From a virus, in IMG/VR virus record IMGVR_UViG_3300025087_000054, positions 1 to 64,000 of that record: a stretch of 64,000 nucleotides of DNA. One strand, given 5' to 3'. The position numbers and the translations under genes were made by a program. Shown one piece after another: positions 5,786 to 34,682 of this stretch (positions within the stretch are counted from its first letter, which is position 1; the number at the start of each line of letters is the position of its first letter). The notes below the pieces were generated by a model, which was not told the DNA's origin, did no database searches, and was given only the letters and a program-made list of their open reading frames with translations.

Positions 5786-5816
5786 AGGGAGCTATATAAA
5801 TTATAGCTCCCTTTTT
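5786..5816 (+). terminator. intrinsic terminator
   Basis: AGGGAGCTATA-taaat-TATAGCTCCCT followed by T-run. Confidence 0.85.
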
Positions 5817-5841
5817 AGTAAGGCAATAAAATTAATATATC

Positions 5842-5884
5842 ACAATTTAAAAAACTTTACAAATCGTTATAGTAATATTATACT
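5842..5884 (+). promoter_or_regulatory. conserved phage promoter motif, copy 1
   Basis: ACAATTTAAAAAACTTTACAAA; TTTACA-17-TATACT. Confidence 0.75.
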
Positions 5885-5909
5885 GTACTTGTAATTTAAT
5901 TTTTATAAA

Positions 5910-6110
5910 ATGGATATAGCTCAATTAAAAACACTTGCTTTTGAGTGTTTTAAGGGTAAAGTAGTTCCAGTTAGTGTACAGGAATATTTACATTATTTAG
6001 AGAAAAAAGAGCAGGAGCGGAAAGATATTGAGGAGTATGCGGAAGATTTTACTACTATTGCGATCAAACAAGTATTTAAGGATGGGTATATTACTCAGTT
6101 AATTAGCTAA
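5910..6110 (+). CDS. hypothetical protein
   Basis: ORF directly after promoter. Confidence 0.55.
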   Translation: MDIAQLKTLAFECFKGKVVPVSVQEYLHYLEKKEQERKDIEEYAEDFTTIAIKQVFKDGYITQLIS

Positions 6111-6119
6111 ATTACACAA

Positions 6120-6374
6120 TTGACAGAAGAGTTACCAAAAAATCAGTTAGGTAAAATAATAAAAGTAACCGATCATTCAGTGATCAGGTATTTTATACAT
6201 ATTTTAGGGTTAAATGAAGCAGAACTACGTAAATTAATATTAACGGAAGAGTTGGCACAGATCATTACGAAATCAGGTGATGGTGATTATCCAATAATAT
6301 ATAAAACTGGTTTACAGAGTAAACAGTGTACAGTTGTAGTAAGAGATGGTAATGTGGTAACGATTAAAGAATAA
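6120..6374 (+). CDS. hypothetical phage protein (VTDHSVIRY...VVTI type)
   Basis: Motif resembles a recurrent small phage family. Confidence 0.5.
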   Translation: MTEELPKNQLGKIIKVTDHSVIRYFIHILGLNEAELRKLILTEELAQIITKSGDGDYPIIYKTGLQSKQCTVVVRDGNVVTIKE

Positions 6375-6505: not shown

Positions 6506-6588
6506 TTAAGGTGGATTGTATTATTTGCCTTTTTATTGTAAATTTAAGGCGTACAGTGCATAATATTACAGACAATAATTATATAATT

Positions 6589-7959
6589 ATGGCAGAATCG
6601 CTTACAGTAATAAAATCAAATTTTTTACCGAGTAGGTTAGTGGTACAAAAGCAAGAACAAAAATTGGCCAGATTTAAGTCAATAGCTTTATCAGAGATGA
6701 GAATGGGGGCATCTATGGAGCATATAAATAAAATAGGGTTAAAAAAACCCTCGGCAGTGTCTTTTGAATTATTACGTAAATTGGCAAGTTATGATCCAAT
6801 AATACGTATTTGCGTTAATGTAATTAAGAAAGAGGTATCACAATGTGATTGGGAAATAATGGTAAAACCAAATGCACCAAAAGCAAAGGAGTATTATATG
6901 CCATTAGTTATGGAGGTGTATGATTTATTTGAGTATATGAATGCAAATGGTGAAAATCTAAGGATTTTATCCGACAGGGTATTAGAGGATTTATTAGTAT
7001 GTGATGCTGGGGTAGTTGAAAAAGTTTACACAATAGATAAAACAAAAATAGGGGCTTTGAACAGTATTGATGGAGCGTCAGTGAGACCAATATATAATGA
7101 ATACGGAGAACTGGGTAATGAGAATGGTGTAGCTTATGTACAGTATATAGATAATGTTAAGGTCGCTGAATTTACAGCAGATGAAGTGGTGTACATGATG
7201 GCACACCCTCAAAATGATGTAAAACATTTTGGGTATGGTAAAAGTAATATTGAGAGTATTTTATTGCATGTTCAGGCGGCTTTGGAGGCGGATATGTTTA
7301 ATATTAAACGATTTACTGAGGATAATGTGCCACCAGGTATATTAGACTTAGGCAATATTAATGAAGAGCAGGCACAAGTATTTAAGGAGATGTGGAATGC
7401 TACTGTAATTACAGAACCACACGCAATGAAATTTGTTTGGGGATCGGATTCAGCTAAAAAGTTTATACCGTTCGGAAACACACAAAAAGATATGCAGTAT
7501 ATTGAATATATACAATGGTTATCGAAACTAAAATTGGCAACGTATGGGCTATCCAGTATTGACGCAAACATGTTTCAAGATGCAAATAGGGCTAATTCAG
7601 AGGTACAGCAAGCTATATCAGCCTCAAGAGGAGTTAGATCATATAAAAAATTATTGGAGGAATATTGGACAAGAGGCGTAATAAGAGCGATGGGGGATGA
7701 TTATAAATGGCTTGAGTTTAAGTATAAAGATGCGGAAACTTTAGACCAGAAAAAACAGCAAGCAGAGATAGATAAGATTTATGTAGAAACAGGTGTATAT
7801 CAACGAAATGAGATACGAGAACGGGAGGGAAAAGCCCCAATTAAGGAATTAGATTATCAGGAGGAATTAGATATGGAAATTGCTAATGAATTAGATGCAG
7901 AAACGTTGGACGGTGATACAGTTAAAAGATCAATGAAAGTATTAAAAAACATGTACTAA
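6589..7959 (+). CDS. portal protein
   Basis: Portal-like motifs (DLLVCDAG, IDGASVRP, GYGKSNIE, NEIREREG..PI), size and position; start refined to MAESL; TTGTAA-17-CATAAT upstream. Confidence 0.9.
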   Translation: MAESLTVIKSNFLPSRLVVQKQEQKLARFKSIALSEMRMGASMEHINKIGLKKPSAVSFELLRKLASYDPIIRICVNVIKKEVSQCDWEIMVKPNAPKAKEYYMPLVMEVYDLFEYMNANGENLRILSDRVLEDLLVCDAGVVEKVYTIDKTKIGALNSIDGASVRPIYNEYGELGNENGVAYVQYIDNVKVAEFTADEVVYMMAHPQNDVKHFGYGKSNIESILLHVQAALEADMFNIKRFTEDNVPPGILDLGNINEEQAQVFKEMWNATVITEPHAMKFVWGSDSAKKFIPFGNTQKDMQYIEYIQWLSKLKLATYGLSSIDANMFQDANRANSEVQQAISASRGVRSYKKLLEEYWTRGVIRAMGDDYKWLEFKYKDAETLDQKKQQAEIDKIYVETGVYQRNEIREREGKAPIKELDYQEELDMEIANELDAETLDGDTVKRSMKVLKNMY

Positions 7960-7970
7960 TTTATATTTTT

Positions 7971-10358
7971 GTGGCTAAAGCGTTACCTGCAATGTCGGAG
8001 AGTGCTGTTTTAAAAAGTTTGTATAAATCAGATATGGTAAAACGGTTTAGAACTGATATTAAAGATGCATTAGATTGGCAATGGAATGGACTAGCCCAAT
8101 CCAATTTGGTAGATAGTCTGTATGATAGATTTTTGCCTGTATTTGATCGTGTAAGACAGTCTAAAATAAATAATACTATAAATAAATCAAGTCCAACGAG
8201 ACGGGCCTTAAATCAAGCAATTTTATCGGGTAAAATAGAAAGTTTGGATAGGTTTCAGCGGTATGTATACGATAAAGTTACTGGTGAAATGCGAAAAGTG
8301 GGTAATTACTCAGGATATGATATGTCGCCAAAAACTTACTTATATACAGTAATGGAAAAAGGCGGGCAGGATGTTTTAAATAAATATTTGGGTATTGATA
8401 AGGTTCAGTTCAGTTTAACAAACTATGAGATGAAGGTATTAATTGATCAAAGGATTAGAACGCTTGTGAAAGGGGTAGATGATTATACGGCACGAAGATT
8501 TAGTGCACAATTAATAAAAGGTATGGAAAATGGCGAGTCTAAAAAGGAATTGGTAACTAGGCTAATGAATGTCGGTTCGGATATATCGGAGATAAGAGCG
8601 GAACGTATTGTACGTACTGAAACGACCGCGGCTGTTGAGTATATGAGGCACGAAACGGCAAGATTAAATGGGGTACAGTTTAAAACTTGGATAACGTCCA
8701 TGTATGATGTATGTATTGTATGCCGTCCTTTACATGGTCAAACAGTAGCAATTAATCAGATGTTTGATGGCGGGTTTGATATGCCACCGATTCATATTAA
8801 TTGTTTTGATAAGGATACGGAAGTATTAACAAACGAGGGTTGGAAATATTTTAATGATATACGTGGAACAGAGAAATGTTTAAGTGTAGATTTAACTACA
8901 TTGAATAGTGAATGGGTAGATATTAAACATAATATTAAGTATAAATTTACTGGCAATTTGTCTTGGTACAAAAATATTAGTACAGATATTATGGTAACAT
9001 CCGATCATAAACATGTAGTTAAGTTTAGAAAAAAGGCAAAAGGTAGACAGGATGCGGGAGTTTTTAAATTAGTATCTGATAATGAGTTACCAAAGCATGA
9101 TTTTAGTTTGTTAGGCACTATACCTAACTATATAGGAAAAAGTGCAGGTACAATTAAAATAGGGGATATTTTGTTTGATACAGCTACATTTTGTGAATTT
9201 TTAGGTTATTATTTATCAGAAGGTAGTATTACTTTACATAAAGGGCATGGTTGGCAAATTAATATTGCTCAGATTAAGCATAAAGAAATTATGGATAATT
9301 GTGCTAAAAAATTGTTCAAAACAGTATGGATTGGAAAAAAGTGTAGCAATATTCCGATTAAGGATGAGAAGATAGTGTTATGGTTTAAACAATTAGGATA
9401 TAGTTATGAAAAATTTATACCCGACTGTATAAAAGAATTAGCTAAAAAGTATCTTAATATACTTTTAGATGCTTATATTTTAGGTGATGGTCATATACAA
9501 AAAGGTACTTATTGGAAAGGGCATCAGTTTGGTAATAGACGAGCATATTTTACATCAAGTAAACGATTGGCGGATGATATAGGTGAATTGTTATTAAAGA
9601 TAGGAAAACGCCCATCATATAGGTTGCCAGAAAGACCGAAAAGTATAAAATTTAAAAATGGTACTTATTTACAAAAACATACTTGTTGGCGTATATACGA
9701 GAATAATAGTACAATGCCTAATAGGGATGGACTACGTAAAGAAATAGTCCCGTATAATGATTATGTTTATGACGTAGAGTTAGTAAAGTACCATACGTTA
9801 TTTGTTAGACGTAATGGTAAGGTATTATTGAGTGGTAATTGTGTATGTCATTTGGAATACGATTTTGCTAATAGTTTATGTGATCAATACTTATCAGGAG
9901 ATTTTGCAAAAAAATATGATTTTTATGATACGATAGATGCCGATTTTTCAGTTTGTGCAAATCCAGAGATGGTATGGAAAGGTGGAAACGGCGTTATTGG
10001 TAATGATAAATTAGGGTTAGCTTTTGCTACGGCATTAATTACAGTTGATGGTAAAGATCAGTATGAAAAAGGATGGCAAGAATTATCTTGGAATAAATTA
10101 GACGAGTTGGCGGAATATGCCGATGATTTGATTGAGGAATATGGGCAGGAGTTATACAAAGATATAAACAATTTTAGGGCGAAAGCGGAGACGACTATAT
10201 TATTAGATTCAGAGTCAAAATTAGCTTTGATGGGGTTATCAGATGCTCAGTTGCGTTTTGTATTGGCTCGTAGTAAGCTTACGGACGCGGGATTTGCTCA
10301 GTTATATAAAAAGCTAAAGTTTCGTGGACTTGTTAAACCGCGGAACTTTACTAAATAA
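7971..10358 (+). CDS. head morphogenesis protein (Mu gpF / SPP1 gp7 family), intein-containing
   Basis: RAERIVRTET, KTW, C.VCRPLHG, PP.H.NC.C motifs directly after portal. Confidence 0.88.
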   Translation: MAKALPAMSESAVLKSLYKSDMVKRFRTDIKDALDWQWNGLAQSNLVDSLYDRFLPVFDRVRQSKINNTINKSSPTRRALNQAILSGKIESLDRFQRYVYDKVTGEMRKVGNYSGYDMSPKTYLYTVMEKGGQDVLNKYLGIDKVQFSLTNYEMKVLIDQRIRTLVKGVDDYTARRFSAQLIKGMENGESKKELVTRLMNVGSDISEIRAERIVRTETTAAVEYMRHETARLNGVQFKTWITSMYDVCIVCRPLHGQTVAINQMFDGGFDMPPIHINCFDKDTEVLTNEGWKYFNDIRGTEKCLSVDLTTLNSEWVDIKHNIKYKFTGNLSWYKNISTDIMVTSDHKHVVKFRKKAKGRQDAGVFKLVSDNELPKHDFSLLGTIPNYIGKSAGTIKIGDILFDTATFCEFLGYYLSEGSITLHKGHGWQINIAQIKHKEIMDNCAKKLFKTVWIGKKCSNIPIKDEKIVLWFKQLGYSYEKFIPDCIKELAKKYLNILLDAYILGDGHIQKGTYWKGHQFGNRRAYFTSSKRLADDIGELLLKIGKRPSYRLPERPKSIKFKNGTYLQKHTCWRIYENNSTMPNRDGLRKEIVPYNDYVYDVELVKYHTLFVRRNGKVLLSGNCVCHLEYDFANSLCDQYLSGDFAKKYDFYDTIDADFSVCANPEMVWKGGNGVIGNDKLGLAFATALITVDGKDQYEKGWQELSWNKLDELAEYADDLIEEYGQELYKDINNFRAKAETTILLDSESKLALMGLSDAQLRFVLARSKLTDAGFAQLYKKLKFRGLVKPRNFTK
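8802..9839 (+). mobile_element. intein with LAGLIDADG homing endonuclease (346 aa)
   Basis: PPIHIN|CFDKDTEVLT...LSGN|CVC; FLGYYLSEGS and LDAYILGDG motifs. Confidence 0.92.
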
Positions 10359-10385
10359 ATTATTTTATTATTTAATTATTAAATT

Positions 10386-10781
10386 ATGCCAATAGATGTA
10401 TCACAATGGAAATATAAGGAATTTAGATGCCCTATTACGAATAAGTTACTATGTAAATATAAGGGCGTAGACGGGCAGATAGAGAAAAAGCACCCAACAA
10501 AACAGCATACATATTATTTTGGTCCGCTACGTGAGCATAAAGATAATGGACCAAAAGGGGTAAATTTTGCGAGCAGAGCGGTAACGTTGCGATGTCAAAA
10601 TAAAAATTGTGTACAAGTATTGGCAAAAGTTATCGGGTATGATTTAATATTAAAGGTAGATTGTCATAGATGTGGATTTGAGAATAGATTTGATTTAAAG
10701 GATGTACATAAAGAGCGTGTTAGAGTGTTATCGGAAACTAGTAAAAAAATCTATATACAAAGATTAAAGGAATTGTTTTGA
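10386..10781 (+). CDS. tandem zinc-ribbon protein, Mu Com-like
   Basis: FRCPITNKLLCKY...IEKKHP and LRCQNKNCVQVLAKV...LKVDCHRCGFEN resemble two Com-type ribbons. Confidence 0.65.
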   Translation: MPIDVSQWKYKEFRCPITNKLLCKYKGVDGQIEKKHPTKQHTYYFGPLREHKDNGPKGVNFASRAVTLRCQNKNCVQVLAKVIGYDLILKVDCHRCGFENRFDLKDVHKERVRVLSETSKKIYIQRLKELF

Positions 10782-10806
10782 CAATAGATAAAGTATACAG
10801 TAAATT
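10778..10806 (+). promoter_or_regulatory. sigma70-type promoter for head genes
   Basis: TTGACA-17-TAAATT; the -35 contains the TGA stop of the Com-like gene. Confidence 0.7.
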
Positions 10807-10832
10807 TATAGGTGTATAAAAAATTTGTTTGT

Positions 10833-10897
10833 TACGGGCAACTAACCCTGTAGCCTCCAAGAGAGGCCGACTAATATAGATATATAGTTGGTCTTTT
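10833..10897 (+). promoter_or_regulatory. structured leader / putative attenuator
   Basis: Hairpins TACGGG/CCTGTA and GCCTC/GAGGC; the second overlaps terminator-like GGCCGACTA/TAGTTGGTC-TTTT. Confidence 0.6.
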
Positions 10898-10925
10898 ATT
10901 TAATACTAAATAAAAATTTTATCTC

Positions 10926-13208
10926 ATGTTTAAACTTTTAATCCCAATAATTAAATCAGTTAAAAGTGCTGATCGTAATGTACTTATCGTTGAAGGTATT
11001 GCGTCAGATCCAACTATTGATAGGGACGAAGAAAGATTTAGTGAAGAGGCTGTTAAAAAAATGGCGGAGTCTGTTAATACAAAACAGATCCCAATACGTG
11101 TAGAACACGAAAATAAATTTTTTACGAATGTAGGTGTTTGGAAAACTGCGGAGATGGTGGGGGATAAGTTAAGAGTTACTGGTGAGATTGATTTAGACAT
11201 GTCTTTAGGTAAAGACATACAAGTAGTTTTAAATAAAGGATTGGGTATAGCGTTATCAGTTGGTGGGAGGGTTTTAGATGCAAGTATTGAATATGCACAA
11301 GATTTGGGCAAATCAATACGTGTATATAAGGACATGATATTAGATGAAATATCAGTAGTTTTAAATGCATCAAATAAATCGGCAACTTTGGCGATTGCTA
11401 AGTCGTACGATCCAGATAAACGGCAAGAAACCGCTGAGGCACAAGTATTAGCAGAAACAACAAAACAACTAATAGAAAAAACAGAAAATGAGGTGGATAT
11501 ACGTAAAAGTATATTGCCTTTTTTAATTGTACGTAATAAGAATATAAAGGCGGAGAAAGCAACAATGGAGGAGTTAATGTCAGTAATGTCGGGTGTATTT
11601 GAACGTGGGGTAACAAAATTTTGGGATGATGAGGTATGTAGTGAATATTGTTGTGAAGAAAAGCACGAATTAACACAAGAGGATATAGATTTAATTTGTT
11701 TGATAGTTAGAATAATGCAGGATATTGATGTATCTGAGGTGGTTAAACCAATTGCGTTAGAGGATTGGGATTTTGTGGGTAAATTGCCAGAAGAGAGTTT
11801 TGTAACAAGTTTAGACGGAAAATGGTTTCCGCATCATAATGCTGATTTTACTATTAATATGGAATGGCTAACTTATTGGTTAGCACATTTAGTTTCAGGA
11901 GCGGAAACTTGGCTTAGTCCTGAACAGTATGCGTTAGCATTAGATCATTTATATCATCATTTTAAATACATTACTATGGACAAAAAAATTAAAGCAGATG
12001 TCTCAAAGTCTGAGGCTACAAAGGCTGAAATGACTGGTGCAGAGACTGGCGAGTTATTTACTAAAGAGGTGGTTAGCTTAATGCAATCATCTTACGAATT
12101 TTATGTAAATAAAAGTGGGGAAAGGCCACAAGTGGACGGTAATGACTTGTCCAATACAGAGGTTAAAAGATTAGCGGAAGCGTATAGAACATATACAACA
12201 CGTAAAAGAGCACAGGAAACAGAAGGAGCTAAATTATTAAAACAACTTTGTCCAGATAGTCAGCCAGAACAGGTTACTAAGGACGAAATTTTATCTACTA
12301 ACGAAACGATTATGAAAGCAAAAGCAAAACCAGCTATGGATGCTAAAGCTACGGCAAAAAAACCAGTGATGGATGAAAAAATGACAAAAACTGAGGAAGT
12401 AAAAGAAGAGATTGCAGTTACGAAGGAAGGAGAAGAAGCACAAGTTGAAAATAAAGAGCCTGAAAAGGCAAAAGACGGTTCAGAGGAAGACGCTGAAAAA
12501 GCGGAAAAATCTGAGGCAGATGCGTCTATAAAAAAGGAAGCCGATACAGAAGATGCACCAGCAGACGGTACAGAATCTGAAAAACCATCTTTGGAAGAGT
12601 CTACAGAAACAAAAAAATCTGAGGACGAAGATGAAGATGCGGAATCCGAAGACACCGAAGAGGTGGAAGAGGATGGTGTTGAAAAAGCAGTTAAGGAACA
12701 GGTTACTAAAGCAATTGAGGCAATCAAAATTGAATTGGCAAAAACTGTTGCAGAACAAATTGCGGAAGTAGTTAAGCAGGCTACAGAATCAGCTACAAAA
12801 ATCATAGAGGGAAAAATGGCTGATTTAACAAAACAGTTTCAGCCTAAGATTGACAGTTTAAATAAAGATTTTACTGATTTGAGGGCAAGTGTGTCTCAGT
12901 CAGCGGAAACTTTAACTAAGTCAACGAAGGAAGAAACGGACAGATTTGCTAAAGTGGAGGGGAGTTTAGAAAAAATAACAAACACCATTGAAGTATTTGG
13001 TAAATCCGTATTAGGACGTAAAAGTGTAGCATCAGCTGAAATACGCAAAGCATTTGTACAAGATATTGTTGCAAAGGGAGATAGTAAAGATTTAACGGTT
13101 GGGCAACAAATTGATTCTTTAGTAGCAAAATTTGTTGATGAGGACAAAATGTTATGGCGAGATGCGTACTCAAAAGCAAAAAAGCAGGTATATGCTATTG
13201 AAGAATAG
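10926..13208 (+). CDS. prohead protease fused to acidic/coiled-coil scaffold
   Basis: N-terminal HK97-type protease (VEGIAS..IDRDEE, H, LSVGG, EISVV..ASN); E/K-rich C-terminal half; precedes capsid gene. Confidence 0.88.
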   Translation: MFKLLIPIIKSVKSADRNVLIVEGIASDPTIDRDEERFSEEAVKKMAESVNTKQIPIRVEHENKFFTNVGVWKTAEMVGDKLRVTGEIDLDMSLGKDIQVVLNKGLGIALSVGGRVLDASIEYAQDLGKSIRVYKDMILDEISVVLNASNKSATLAIAKSYDPDKRQETAEAQVLAETTKQLIEKTENEVDIRKSILPFLIVRNKNIKAEKATMEELMSVMSGVFERGVTKFWDDEVCSEYCCEEKHELTQEDIDLICLIVRIMQDIDVSEVVKPIALEDWDFVGKLPEESFVTSLDGKWFPHHNADFTINMEWLTYWLAHLVSGAETWLSPEQYALALDHLYHHFKYITMDKKIKADVSKSEATKAEMTGAETGELFTKEVVSLMQSSYEFYVNKSGERPQVDGNDLSNTEVKRLAEAYRTYTTRKRAQETEGAKLLKQLCPDSQPEQVTKDEILSTNETIMKAKAKPAMDAKATAKKPVMDEKMTKTEEVKEEIAVTKEGEEAQVENKEPEKAKDGSEEDAEKAEKSEADASIKKEADTEDAPADGTESEKPSLEESTETKKSEDEDEDAESEDTEEVEEDGVEKAVKEQVTKAIEAIKIELAKTVAEQIAEVVKQATESATKIIEGKMADLTKQFQPKIDSLNKDFTDLRASVSQSAETLTKSTKEETDRFAKVEGSLEKITNTIEVFGKSVLGRKSVASAEIRKAFVQDIVAKGDSKDLTVGQQIDSLVAKFVDEDKMLWRDAYSKAKKQVYAIEE

Positions 13209-13244: not shown

Positions 13245-14210
13245 ATGGACATACAAAAAACATTAGAAAAAGTTGAAAAAACTTTGTCTACTCCTACATA
13301 TATTGAAGGGGCGATACTAACAAGAGAAAATCTTGCCGCAGGTATTACTCGTTTAACAGATAAGGAAACACCTATCAGGGATATGTTAACTCGTAAAAAA
13401 GGTAGCGGTTTAGCAGCATCTTGGAATGTACTTACAGCAATTGGTACAGGCAACTCACCATTTGCGGAAGGAGGTACACCAACAGAAGATGACGCAACTT
13501 ACGCAAGATCAAGTGCGGTCTACAAAGAACTTGGTAAAACAAAAAGTGTTACCGATAAAATGTTGGCGGCTGGTAAAGACTTTATTGATCAAGAAGCAGA
13601 GCAAACAGAGGTAGCTATGCGTGAAGTAATCCAGGACGAAGAACAGCTTATCATAACAGGAGATACAGGGTCATCAGCTTTGGAATTTGATGGTATGCGT
13701 ACACTTATTACAACTAATGTAATAGATGACGCAAATGATTCTGCTGGGTTCCGATCGGACTTGTTAGATCAAGCAATTGAAACGTTATTAGACACTTATT
13801 CAGTCAGACCTACAGTTATTTGGGTGGGTTATGCAATGAAAAGAGCAATCAATCAATCATTGGCTGGTGATGTAAGAGTGAATCTGGATCAAGGTAATTT
13901 AGTATCTACAGGTGTTGAGGTAGGTAGCTATCAATCAATGGTAGGTAAAATCCCTTTTGTTGCATCTTATGCAATTGCAAAAGACAGTGATACTTATTCA
14001 GCTACACAAAATGCAGTATCAGATATTTATGTTATTACTCAAAAGACAAAAGGACAGGATGTCATTTATATGGAGGATTTATATGGAATGGGAAAAAGCA
14101 AACTAGACCGAACAGGAGCGGCAATCAAGTTTATGATAACTGAATGTACAGTTCTTGTTTGTAGAGCTGAACAGTTCAACGTAAGAATAGCTAATGTACA
14201 AGTTGAATAA
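13245..14210 (+). CDS. major capsid protein
   Basis: 321 aa after protease; ETPIRDML, AEGG.P, IITGD....EFDGM motifs of HK97-fold capsids. Confidence 0.88.
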   Translation: MDIQKTLEKVEKTLSTPTYIEGAILTRENLAAGITRLTDKETPIRDMLTRKKGSGLAASWNVLTAIGTGNSPFAEGGTPTEDDATYARSSAVYKELGKTKSVTDKMLAAGKDFIDQEAEQTEVAMREVIQDEEQLIITGDTGSSALEFDGMRTLITTNVIDDANDSAGFRSDLLDQAIETLLDTYSVRPTVIWVGYAMKRAINQSLAGDVRVNLDQGNLVSTGVEVGSYQSMVGKIPFVASYAIAKDSDTYSATQNAVSDIYVITQKTKGQDVIYMEDLYGMGKSKLDRTGAAIKFMITECTVLVCRAEQFNVRIANVQVE

Positions 14211-14238: not shown

Positions 14239-14362
14239 AGCCAATGCCCTTAATTACGTAATACTCAAAGGCAACCCCGATGAGTGAGCGAATATAGAGC
14301 ATTGGCTAAAAAATTAGGTACTATAGGATTTATTCCTATGTGGGTAATGCCCACGTATTTAA
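14239..14362 (+). ncRNA. candidate structured RNA downstream of capsid gene
   Basis: AGCCAATGC/GCATTGGCT stem enclosing ACTCA/TGAGT; then junction TTAGGTAC/GTATTTAA, ATAGGA/TCCTAT, GTGGGT/GCCCAC. Confidence 0.55.
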
Positions 14363-14382
14363 TACTTAAAATCTTAATTAAT

Positions 14383-15294
14383 ATGGGAAAAGAAAAATTA
14401 TTGTCCAAGACACTTGGGCAAATCAAAAAAGGATACGGATATGATACCCCTTTGGGTAAATGTCCAATGTATCAGGAAATGAAGAATGTAGCAACAGCTA
14501 GTTCCACTAGTGTGTTGGCGGCTACTACATTAGCAAATGGTGTGGAATCTGTAGTAACAGAGAATATTACTGATCCGTTACATTATAGGAATTTACGTGT
14601 AGTAGGTGGCAGTGCTAAAGTAGCTCAAGTTAATACATTAACGGTAGGTGGTACTTTTGAAGTAGGGGATATATTTTCAGTTACTATTAATGGGCATCAG
14701 GTAGTACACACGGTAGTAACAGAAGATACAGATAACGCTGGTATTGCTACAGCATTAAAAACATTAATAGATGCGTTGGCTGATTCAGCATATACTTGCT
14801 CAAGATCAAGTAATGTATTGACATTAACTGCGGCAGTGGCAGGGGTAGCGTTTACAGTTACCGCAAATAATGCAACTAATGGTGGATCAACTAATGATCA
14901 AACTTTTGTTAAGGTTGAAACTGTTGCCAATGTAGTGGGTACAAATGGTGTTGTAACAATCAAAGGTAGAGACTGGGCAGGAAGACGTATTGCTGAACAA
15001 TTAACTTTGAATGGGGCAACTGTAGTAGTAGGTAATATACCATTTATGAGTGTTTATGAAATTACTTTACCAGCTAGATCAGTATCGGGCGATACCGTGT
15101 CAGTCGGTTGCGGTGATAAATTAGGTTTATATAGACCAATACGAGTTACAGCAGATGTATTAAGTGTAAGATTAGGTGATTATTCAGAGGAAACAATAGC
15201 GGCAGTGGGAGCGTCTTATGGTACAGTAACACCAACAAATGTGCCAAATAATACTAGGGATTATAATGTAAGTTATTTGACTTATTTAGTTTAA
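14383..15294 (+). CDS. virion structural protein (decoration candidate) with inserted beta domain
   Basis: Thr/Val/Ala rich, follows capsid gene; start refined to MGKEK. Confidence 0.6.
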   Translation: MGKEKLLSKTLGQIKKGYGYDTPLGKCPMYQEMKNVATASSTSVLAATTLANGVESVVTENITDPLHYRNLRVVGGSAKVAQVNTLTVGGTFEVGDIFSVTINGHQVVHTVVTEDTDNAGIATALKTLIDALADSAYTCSRSSNVLTLTAAVAGVAFTVTANNATNGGSTNDQTFVKVETVANVVGTNGVVTIKGRDWAGRRIAEQLTLNGATVVVGNIPFMSVYEITLPARSVSGDTVSVGCGDKLGLYRPIRVTADVLSVRLGDYSEETIAAVGASYGTVTPTNVPNNTRDYNVSYLTYLV

Positions 15295-15298
15295 AAAC

Positions 15299-15327
15299 TT
15301 TACTAATGAAGAAAGGCTGGTTATAAT
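15299..15327 (+). promoter_or_regulatory. promoter (variant of conserved motif) overlapping terminator
   Basis: AAAAAC then TTTACT-17-TATAAT. Confidence 0.65.
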
Positions 15328-15343
15328 ACAACCAGCCTTTTTT
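15312..15343 (+). terminator. intrinsic terminator
   Basis: AAAGGCTGGTT-ataatac-AACCAGCCTTT-TTT. Confidence 0.85.
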
Positions 15344-34554: not shown

Positions 34555-34583
34555 TTGACGTATGTATAAAGTTAATTTATAAT
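34555..34583 (+). promoter_or_regulatory. sigma70-type promoter
   Basis: TTGACG-17-TATAAT. Confidence 0.8.
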
Positions 34584-34587
34584 AAAT

Positions 34588-34651
34588 ATGCTCATCGGTT
34601 CACAAACGTAAAGGTTAGTAAAAAGGCTCGGCAGTAATGCTAAGCCTTTTT
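34588..34651 (+). ncRNA. candidate small RNA antisense to recA translation start
   Basis: Bounded by promoter and terminator; segments complementary to 34689-34718. Confidence 0.6.
34620..34651 (+). terminator. intrinsic terminator
   Basis: AAAAAGGCT-c-GGCA-gtaa-TGCT-a-AGCCTTTTT. Confidence 0.85.
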
Positions 34652-34653
34652 AT

Positions 34654-34682
34654 TTTACTTTTGTAAAAGTCGCCATTATAAT
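34654..34682 (+). promoter_or_regulatory. recA promoter
   Basis: TTTACT-17-TATAAT directly after terminator. Confidence 0.7.

Follow-up and report, generated by a model that had tools for sequence, protein, structure and literature searches.

To our knowledge, the only function that has been characterized for a Com protein is the translational activation of mom. In phage HK022, the two stem-loops of the put RNA make RNA polymerase resistant to terminators, and in the factor-stabilized antiterminators (RAT and the ANTAR targets) a conserved, intrinsically unstable helix overlaps a terminator. Com itself is a zinc finger that binds an RNA hairpin and exerts its effect on a structure immediately 3' of its own gene, and Mu Com is a translational activator (PMC6483171). 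Its target hairpin adjoins, and partly overlaps, an inhibitory structure of the mom mRNA (PMC6483171). The Com zinc finger of Haemophilus sputorum, a model of Mu Com, selects the motifs 5'-GAG(N)2CC-3' and 5'-CC(N)2-3GAG-3' in the loop region of a short hairpin with a stem of 3 to 4 bp (PMC6483171).

Here we describe a virus locus in which a tandem Com-like gene stands directly 5' of an RNA element that looks like a protein-operated switch timing capsid production. The stretch of DNA that was analyzed (the window) comprises 64,000 nucleotides of a 74.9-kb IMG/VR virus record. Its G+C content is 33%, with a strong skew of G over C, and its genes are all on the plus strand.

The tandem Com-like gene and its neighborhood

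The features of the locus are listed in Table 1. A scan for hairpins followed by a T run found only about four clean intergenic terminators in the 64 kb. One of them lies in the gap downstream of the Com-like gene and another closes the scaffold-capsid-p336 unit, so that this block is bounded by a terminator on either side. The latter terminator and the two outermost ones are at module borders. The first is followed by a TTTACA-17-TATACT sequence ahead of the packaging and portal genes, and a TTTACT-17-TATAAT match overlaps the loop of the terminator behind the 336-aa protein gene.

Table 1. Coordinates of features at the locus, in positions of the window
Feature	Position	Strand	Basis or detail
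Clean terminator	~5790-5816		hairpin-plus-T-run scan
Portal gene	6511-7959	+	
Mu-F-like head protein gene with LAGLIDADG-containing insert	7971-10358	+	
131-aa tandem Com-like zinc-ribbon protein	10386-10781	+	ORF (ATG at 10386, TGA stop at 10779-10781), Pfam PF10122, family alignment
N-terminal degenerate Com-like repeat, ~residues 11-46	10416-10523	+	hhalign, alignment A1
C-terminal Cys4 Com-type ribbon, ~residues 66-104	10581-10697	+	invariant Cys, PF10122 match
Sigma70-like promoter TTGACA-17-TAAATT	10778-10806	+	-35 box 10778-10783, TAAATT 10801-10806
Intergenic gap, 144 nt	10782-10925		
Hairpin P1	10831-10854	+	10831-10838 pairs with 10847-10854; core GGG 10836-10838 with CCC 10846-10848
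Hairpin P2, candidate antiterminator	10853-10867	+	GCCUC 10853-10857, loop CAAGA, GAGGC 10863-10867
CCAAGAG, match to SELEX motif CC(N)2-3GAG	10857-10863	+	
Alternative extended terminator helix	10861-10897	+	takes 3' strand of P2; GAGAGG pairs with UCUUUU
Intrinsic terminator (predicted)	10865-10901	+	GGCCGACUA 10865-10873 pairs with UAGUUGGUC 10885-10893, U-tract 10894-10901; hairpin-plus-T-run scan
Protease/scaffold fusion gene, 760 aa	10926-13208	+	PHROG head maturation protease, E=1.4e-6
Major capsid protein, SU10 type	13245-14210	+	Pfam PF17236, E=1.6e-20
336-aa protein gene	14284-15294	+	
Intrinsic terminator closing scaffold-capsid-p336 unit	15315-15343	+	hairpin-plus-T-run scan
Clean terminator	34625-34657		hairpin-plus-T-run scan

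The first-pass annotation had described the 131-aa protein as a double Com-like ribbon with a degenerate first copy, and both the duplication and the likeness to Com were borne out. When the profiles of the two halves were compared with hhalign, they aligned with a probability of 97% (E=8e-11); by this comparison, the Cys-less N-terminal half is a copy of the Cys4 C-terminal half. Residues C70, C75, C93, and C96 are invariant in the family alignment (A1), giving the C-terminal repeat the four-Cys, two-knuckle pattern of zinc ligands and the consensus CxxCxRLLxKAIGxDxxVEIKCxxC. The N-terminal repeat, with the consensus EYRCxxxxLLCKAxGxGQIEI, lacks the four Cys. Taken alone, the 131-aa protein matched Pfam Zn_ribbon_Com (PF10122) over residues 68 to 100 with E=1.7e-4 and 21.4 bits, slightly below the curated cut-off of 22.9 bits, and it matched the PHROG families "translational regulator" and "gpCom" weakly. 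All 12 aligned family members, the 131-aa protein included, matched PF10122 (E<=0.1; best E=4.9e-9). The subthreshold score of the single protein and the missing zinc ligands of its N-terminal repeat call for caution. Pfam searches with the protein and its family returned Zn_ribbon_Com and weak zinc-ribbon families only, with no ANTAR or CAT domain, and no Q family was found in the Pfam, PHROG, and NCBIfam scans.

The tandem family is rare. A word-indexed search of 5.8 billion proteins matched the 131-aa protein only to itself, and an exhaustive HMMER search of 1.84 billion representatives returned 11 true relatives of 90 to 179 aa; a twelfth match, the 775-aa repeat protein P0012, was discarded as a false positive. 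Where the family conserves a G, five of the database relatives (P0006, P0008, P0010, P0011, and P0013) show W, as if their genes had been translated wrongly under code 4. An AF2 model built with the family alignment reached a pLDDT of 88 and showed two beta-hairpin modules and a C-terminal helix, whereas the model from the single sequence was useless (pLDDT 39). Foldseek searches against PDB and BFVD, VIA-align searches of 48,161 chains, and sequence and profile searches of PDB found no whole-protein structural analogue, solved or predicted, and no RNA-binding analogue above noise; the best structural match was the Tim15 zinc finger (Z 2.9).

With the capsid protein as a handle, we collected 20 viral and 28 metagenomic loci. 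Among those with enough upstream DNA and a homologous head module, the order portal, MuF, Com-like gene, a gap of 110 to 350 nt, scaffold, and capsid is kept, and the protease/scaffold gene, the first gene 3' of the RNA element here, holds this place in the relatives as well. The Com-like gene of three viral loci (L015, L016, and L020) and of the metagenomic locus L157 became visible only after TGA codons were read through, and the proteins obtained in this way were clear family members (E=2e-44 and 3e-50). As a side observation, the Mu-F-like protein of the window has 795 aa and an internal insert at about residues 280 to 650, with a weak match to LAGLIDADG_3 and PHROG matches typical of intein-bearing proteins, while the length of the protein in relatives ranges from 399 to 834 aa. 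Such a pattern would fit an intein or a homing-endonuclease insertion carried by some relatives and missing from others.

Several close relatives are recoded: in-frame TGA codons occur in the capsid and Com-like genes of L015, L016, L020, and L157 and of the metagenomic locus L153 (for example, L015:5436-8972). Within the capsid genes of L015 and L157, 28 of 35 and 13 of 20 of them, respectively, align with Gly in standard-code homologues, and this predominance of Gly indicates genetic code 25, which is used by Gracilibacteria and Absconditabacteria. The phage under study uses the standard code, with TGA as a rare stop (4 of 71). Relatives that read TGA as Gly suggest Patescibacteria hosts. 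A search of 185,579 prokaryote genomes found only three relatives of the capsid protein; L171 and L172 are contigs of Patescibacteria MAGs, and L170 comes from a MAG labeled Nanoarchaeota. These MAGs hint at CPR hosts, the binning of phage contigs being weak evidence, and the host is probably uncultivated.

The RNA element and its competing helices

The gap downstream of the Com-like gene contains a motif of four parts: P1, a linker, P2, and P3. In the relatives, P1 consists of GGG, a loop, and CCC and is followed by the linker, usually UGAGA; P2 has 3 to 5 bp and a loop such as CAAGA; and P3 is a long hairpin directly 3' of P2, which begins with GCCGACUAA and mostly runs into a U-tract (weak in L014 and L004). 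The hairpins proposed in the first-pass annotation were found where it had placed them, as was the sharing of bases 10865-10867 between P2 and the terminator. The predicted terminator has the G+C-rich stem and U-tract typical of its kind, with 9 bp and an AU extension followed by UUUUAUUU. The extended version of this helix is the minimum-free-energy fold, and the leader folded better than 200 of 200 shuffled sequences (z = -4.1 and -3.8). The U-tract is separated from the next ATG by 25 nt here, by 17 to 25 nt in most loci, and by 0 to 150 nt across the relatives. With only 25 nt between the two, transcripts of the head genes must cross the terminator. A search of positions 10300-11000 against Rfam 15 gave no relevant match at E<=10, and a scan for tRNA and tmRNA found none; with about 70 nt and no counterpart in Rfam, the RNA represents a new, compact motif.

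Covariance models built from six sequences (R1) and fourteen sequences (R2) together identified the motif in 16 distinct phage loci, with a single occurrence in the genome under study. Two weak model matches, L009 and L157, were added by inspection, giving 18 instances. Enough upstream DNA is available in 17 loci, and in every one of them the motif follows the end of a Com-like gene at a distance of 9 to 99 nt, so that none has the motif without the gene; L017, cut by the contig end, was left out of this count. The Com-like gene and the RNA are strictly linked. Unrelated viral DNA, 1.08 Mb chosen beforehand for the presence of a 14-nt core pattern, gave no match to the covariance model. All 120 viral-contig loci returned by a loose 14-base pattern scan were chance matches according to the model, and a strict 17-mer scan returned only L002 and L003, both already in the set. 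Queries with the Com-like protein found no further related loci among viral contigs, and alignment A1 contained no block conserved enough to serve as a search query.

The covariance models did not find the motif in L021, which is discussed below, or in the mosaic loci L163 to L168. The latter were considered as negative controls and rejected as invalid, since they share part of the capsid gene and have no portal, MuF, or scaffold genes of this type. Their capsid similarity is limited to a portion of 130 to 270 aa with 62 to 68% identity, and there is no likeness in the portal, MuF, Com-like, or scaffold genes; given this partial, capsid-only similarity, the capsid gene is either mosaic or interrupted.

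The base pairing is well preserved among the loci. In a model-based alignment of 16 sequences, 87% of the cells pair, and both partners change in 9 of the 15 pairs; the observed score was reached in none of 500 column shuffles, and no slid register came near it. All four pairs of P2 have changes on both sides in these sequences, with variants that include CCUC/GAGG, CUUC/GAAG, ACUC/GAGU, UCUC/GAGA, CCUU/AAGG, and CCC/GGG, and the pairs of P3 also covary. The GGG/CCC core of P1 is invariant, with one compensatory change, and P1 is backed more by conservation than by covariation. The extended helix between the 3' strand of P2 and the tail of the terminator is 91.6% paired and has changes on both sides in three of four tail pairs, for example GAGU/GCUC in L008, GAAG/UUUC in L006, and AGG/CCU in L146 and L011. 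Because the model fitted the tail columns to no structure, this support for the extended helix is independent. Fold and covariation across the homologous loci thus agree with the overlap that had been read from the single genome, and P2 and the base of the terminator stem are mutually exclusive and both under selection. It is rare that sequence alone yields covariation support for both of two helices that exclude each other.

P2 is a weak helix. On its own, it has a folding energy of about -3.1 kcal/mol in this genome and between 0 and -3 kcal/mol in 12 relatives, and the extended terminator beats the P2 state by 1.7 kcal/mol here and by 5.5 to 10.3 kcal/mol in the 12 relatives. These ranges refer to the 13 sequences in which P2 is correctly aligned; L019, with a misaligned 5' strand of P2 (-4.6 kcal/mol for P2 alone), was left out. 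P2 shares bases with the terminator stem and is the weaker of the two without a factor, as is the case for the antiterminator of RAT- and ANTAR-type leaders; both helices covary. On these energies, a conserved helix as weak as P2 would need a stabilizing factor.

Two further features were considered and rejected. A kissing interaction between the P1 loop (GAAC and similar) and the interior of P3 (GUUY) is unsupported, since self pairs scored no better than cross pairs (4.36 versus 4.18). Attenuation by a leader peptide would involve a 13-codon GTG frame at 10812-10853, beginning at the predicted 5' end of the transcript, and was rejected because relatives with only 14 to 18 nt from the -10 box to P1 have no room for it. 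With about 116 nt, the P3 hairpin of L014 (5761-5876) extends so far that the first ATG of the scaffold ORF precedes its 3' strand. Either translation of the scaffold gene truly starts further 3', or the start codon of this relative is also covered by the structure.

The TGA stop of the Com-like gene lies inside the -35 box of the promoter-like sequence that had been noted upstream of P1, and this sequence is present as described. A single match of this kind is no better than chance (44 found versus 45.7 expected in the window). However, in the 80 nt 5' of P1, matches of at least 9/12 occur in 9 of 18 loci, compared with 9% of control windows from the same loci, and matches of at least 10/12 in 6 of 18, compared with 1.6%. 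Many relatives have a TTGMCA-16/18-TAtaaT-like site 5' of P1, with a -35 box (TTGCCA, TTGCAA, or TTGACA) that often reaches into the 3' end of the Com-like gene. A sigma70-like promoter over the stop codon recurs in about half of the loci. No convincing promoter was found in L010, L004, and L009, and L010 has only 9 nt between the Com-like stop and the motif. Some relatives have no room for a separate promoter, so the element would also act as an intercistronic attenuator and not just as a promoter-proximal leader. RNA polymerase would always reach it by reading through from the Com-like gene and, in roughly half of the phages, from its own promoter as well.

A putative switch and its alternatives

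We propose, with a probability of roughly 45%, that termination in front of the scaffold and capsid genes is modulated by binding of the Com-like protein to P1/P2. The element would then work in cis as an RNA switch through which transcription enters the genes of the capsid shell (protease/scaffold, major capsid protein, and the 336-aa protein), and the zinc-ribbon product of the tandem Com-like gene immediately 5' of it would probably operate this switch. Transcripts would come from two sources, the promoter over the Com-like stop and read-through from the portal-MuF-Com genes. The nascent RNA would fold P1 and the short P2 first and the long terminator hairpin afterwards, with the 3' strand of P2 doubling as the bottom of the terminator stem, beside the U-tract. 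Since the full terminator wins at equilibrium, the default would be termination or attenuation. Once the Com-like protein had accumulated, it would bind the P1-P2 segment carrying the CC(N)2-3GAG elements and keep the 3' strand of P2 off the terminator base, and RNA polymerase would enter the head genes. Both the binding of the protein to the RNA and the read-through driven by it are predictions made by analogy, and the activity of the terminator is likewise predicted. The energetics suggest this polarity; it could also be reversed, with the protein melting P2 and promoting termination. P2 has just 3 to 5 bp, its overlap with the canonical stem is 2 to 4 nt, and because the terminator core is intact in either state, the effect of the switch could be small.

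The candidate target of the protein resembles that of Com. The motif CC(N)2-3GAG is present in the P1-P2 segment of 17 of the 18 instances, often twice, compared with 3% of control windows; the instances are homologous and therefore amount to about one independent coincidence, with a chance of about 3 to 10%. The most conserved unpaired stretch of the RNA, CCCUGAG, fits CC(N)2GAG, many P2 hairpins carry a second copy (CCAAGAG in this genome), and L010 and L157 match the full bipartite SELEX pattern. The presence of the motif is suggestive, a pointer to Com-type recognition and not proof of it.

Binding to P1/P2 could also act after transcription. The protein would then regulate the 3' UTR of its own mRNA, or the translation or stability of the scaffold mRNA in the manner of Mu Com, and the terminator would merely end the portal-MuF-Com transcript. 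Such a role would be in keeping with the translational activity of Mu Com itself (PMC6483171), with the motif of L010, which begins 9 nt past the Com-like stop as a 3' UTR or intercistronic element would, and with the 17 to 25 nt that separate the U-tract from the next ATG in most loci. We regard it as unlikely because the ATG follows the motif at a distance that varies between 0 and about 150 nt, and because the conserved helices do not include the start codon. Moreover, the competitor of P2 is the terminator base rather than the ribosome-binding region, these genes have no Shine-Dalgarno sequence, and the covariation of the tail with the 3' strand of P2 would be left unexplained.

The order of a promoter-like site and a terminator within about 90 nt, seen in about half of the loci, would also fit an element that works independently of the protein: a stand-alone sRNA (a promoter, an RNA of about 90 nt, and a terminator), a sensor of a host factor or ligand, or a put-like RNA as in HK022, with the Com-like gene as a mere neighbor. 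Another promoter-terminator unit is found in this genome at 34555-34657. Additionally, L021 keeps the protein without the RNA. Its diverged tandem Com-like gene (5818-6204) has two Cys-complete ribbons, CxxC...CxxxH at the N terminus and CxxC...CxxC at the C terminus, and is separated from the scaffold gene by a gap of 24 nt. The protein thus need not depend on the RNA, and L021 is the main caution for the switch model; it may preserve the ancestral arrangement or belong to a lineage from which the switch has been lost. We nevertheless find an RNA acting without the protein improbable, given that the element was never found without the Com-like gene in 17 loci and that L010, L004, and L009 have no recognizable promoter or no room for one. 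The RNA contains the Com recognition motif, has no long conserved single-stranded seed, and matches no riboswitch or put family of Rfam.

A passive role of the terminator appears quite unlikely. A partial terminator could lower scaffold and capsid expression relative to portal and MuF, or insulate one from the other, with P1 and P2 stabilizing or processing the transcript and the Com-like protein serving an unrelated function such as head assembly. The four or so clear intrinsic terminators of the genome all stand at module borders and the Com-like gene lies within the morphogenesis module, as would be expected. However, a marginal, covarying P2 that overlaps the terminator base would not be expected of a passive element, and the conserved unpaired CCCUGAGA segment would be left unexplained. 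Finally, the order of regulator, promoter, short leader, terminator, and structural genes mirrors that of Q-PR'-tR'-late genes in lambda, but a zinc-ribbon protein that binds promoter DNA and loads on paused RNA polymerase to make it terminator resistant is highly improbable here, with no Q family detected, the promoter missing in some loci, and conservation residing in RNA helices with compensatory changes and not in DNA sites.

If the Com-like protein does control termination, we tentatively suggest that these loci represent an undescribed class of phage antiterminators, in which a tandem Com-type protein and a two-hairpin P1-P2 RNA act against an intrinsic terminator and set the timing and level of scaffold-capsid transcription in phages of Patescibacteria (CPR). 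The new attenuator would be a variant of known regulatory logic. It would extend the Com family from the translation of one DNA-modification gene to the attenuation of virion-gene transcription, and it would be the first link of the family to transcription termination and to the timing of capsid genes. A natural tandem Com with a covarying two-hairpin target would also offer a second, comparative handle on how this zinc ribbon reads RNA. The clade appears to infect Patescibacteria, among them hosts in which TGA encodes Gly.

Comparison with described systems

The HK022 put RNA, like the element described here, comprises two adjacent phage stem-loops just ahead of a terminator. However, there is no sequence or Rfam similarity between the two. 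Here the terminator has a competitor in one of the hairpins, and a dedicated protein gene is found next to the RNA in every case. The lambda Q/PR'/6S leader/tR' region shares with this locus a regulator gene directly 5' of a promoter, a short leader, and a terminator gating structural genes. In contrast to lambda, the regulator has no homology to Q, the conserved information is RNA secondary structure, and the element lies inside the morphogenesis module, 3' of the portal and MuF genes.

The targets of the ANTAR proteins EutV, AmiR, and NasR and the RAT of BglG/LicT likewise have one or two weak hairpins ahead of a terminator, and the hairpin closest to it overlaps the 5' side of its base. In those leaders, the terminator wins unless a protein stabilizes the antiterminator, a behavior that the folding energies predict for the present element. 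Unlike them, this locus encodes no ANTAR or CAT domain, and a Com-type zinc ribbon is the candidate binder. The paired hexaloops of ANTAR targets have no counterpart among the loops here, and the genes under control would be those of a phage head.

The Mu Com-mom system also includes a small zinc-ribbon protein of the Cys4 type, which belongs to the same Pfam family (PF10122), and a short hairpin just 3' of its gene that adjoins or overlaps a larger inhibitory helix. The target segments of both contain CC(N)2-3GAG, with binding at the present locus predicted from sequence. However, the domain is duplicated here, with a first copy that lacks Cys, and the inhibitory helix is an intrinsic terminator, whereas the start codon is occluded in mom. 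The genes 3' of the element encode the protease/scaffold and capsid proteins rather than mom or another DNA-modification function, and the hosts are probably Patescibacteria.
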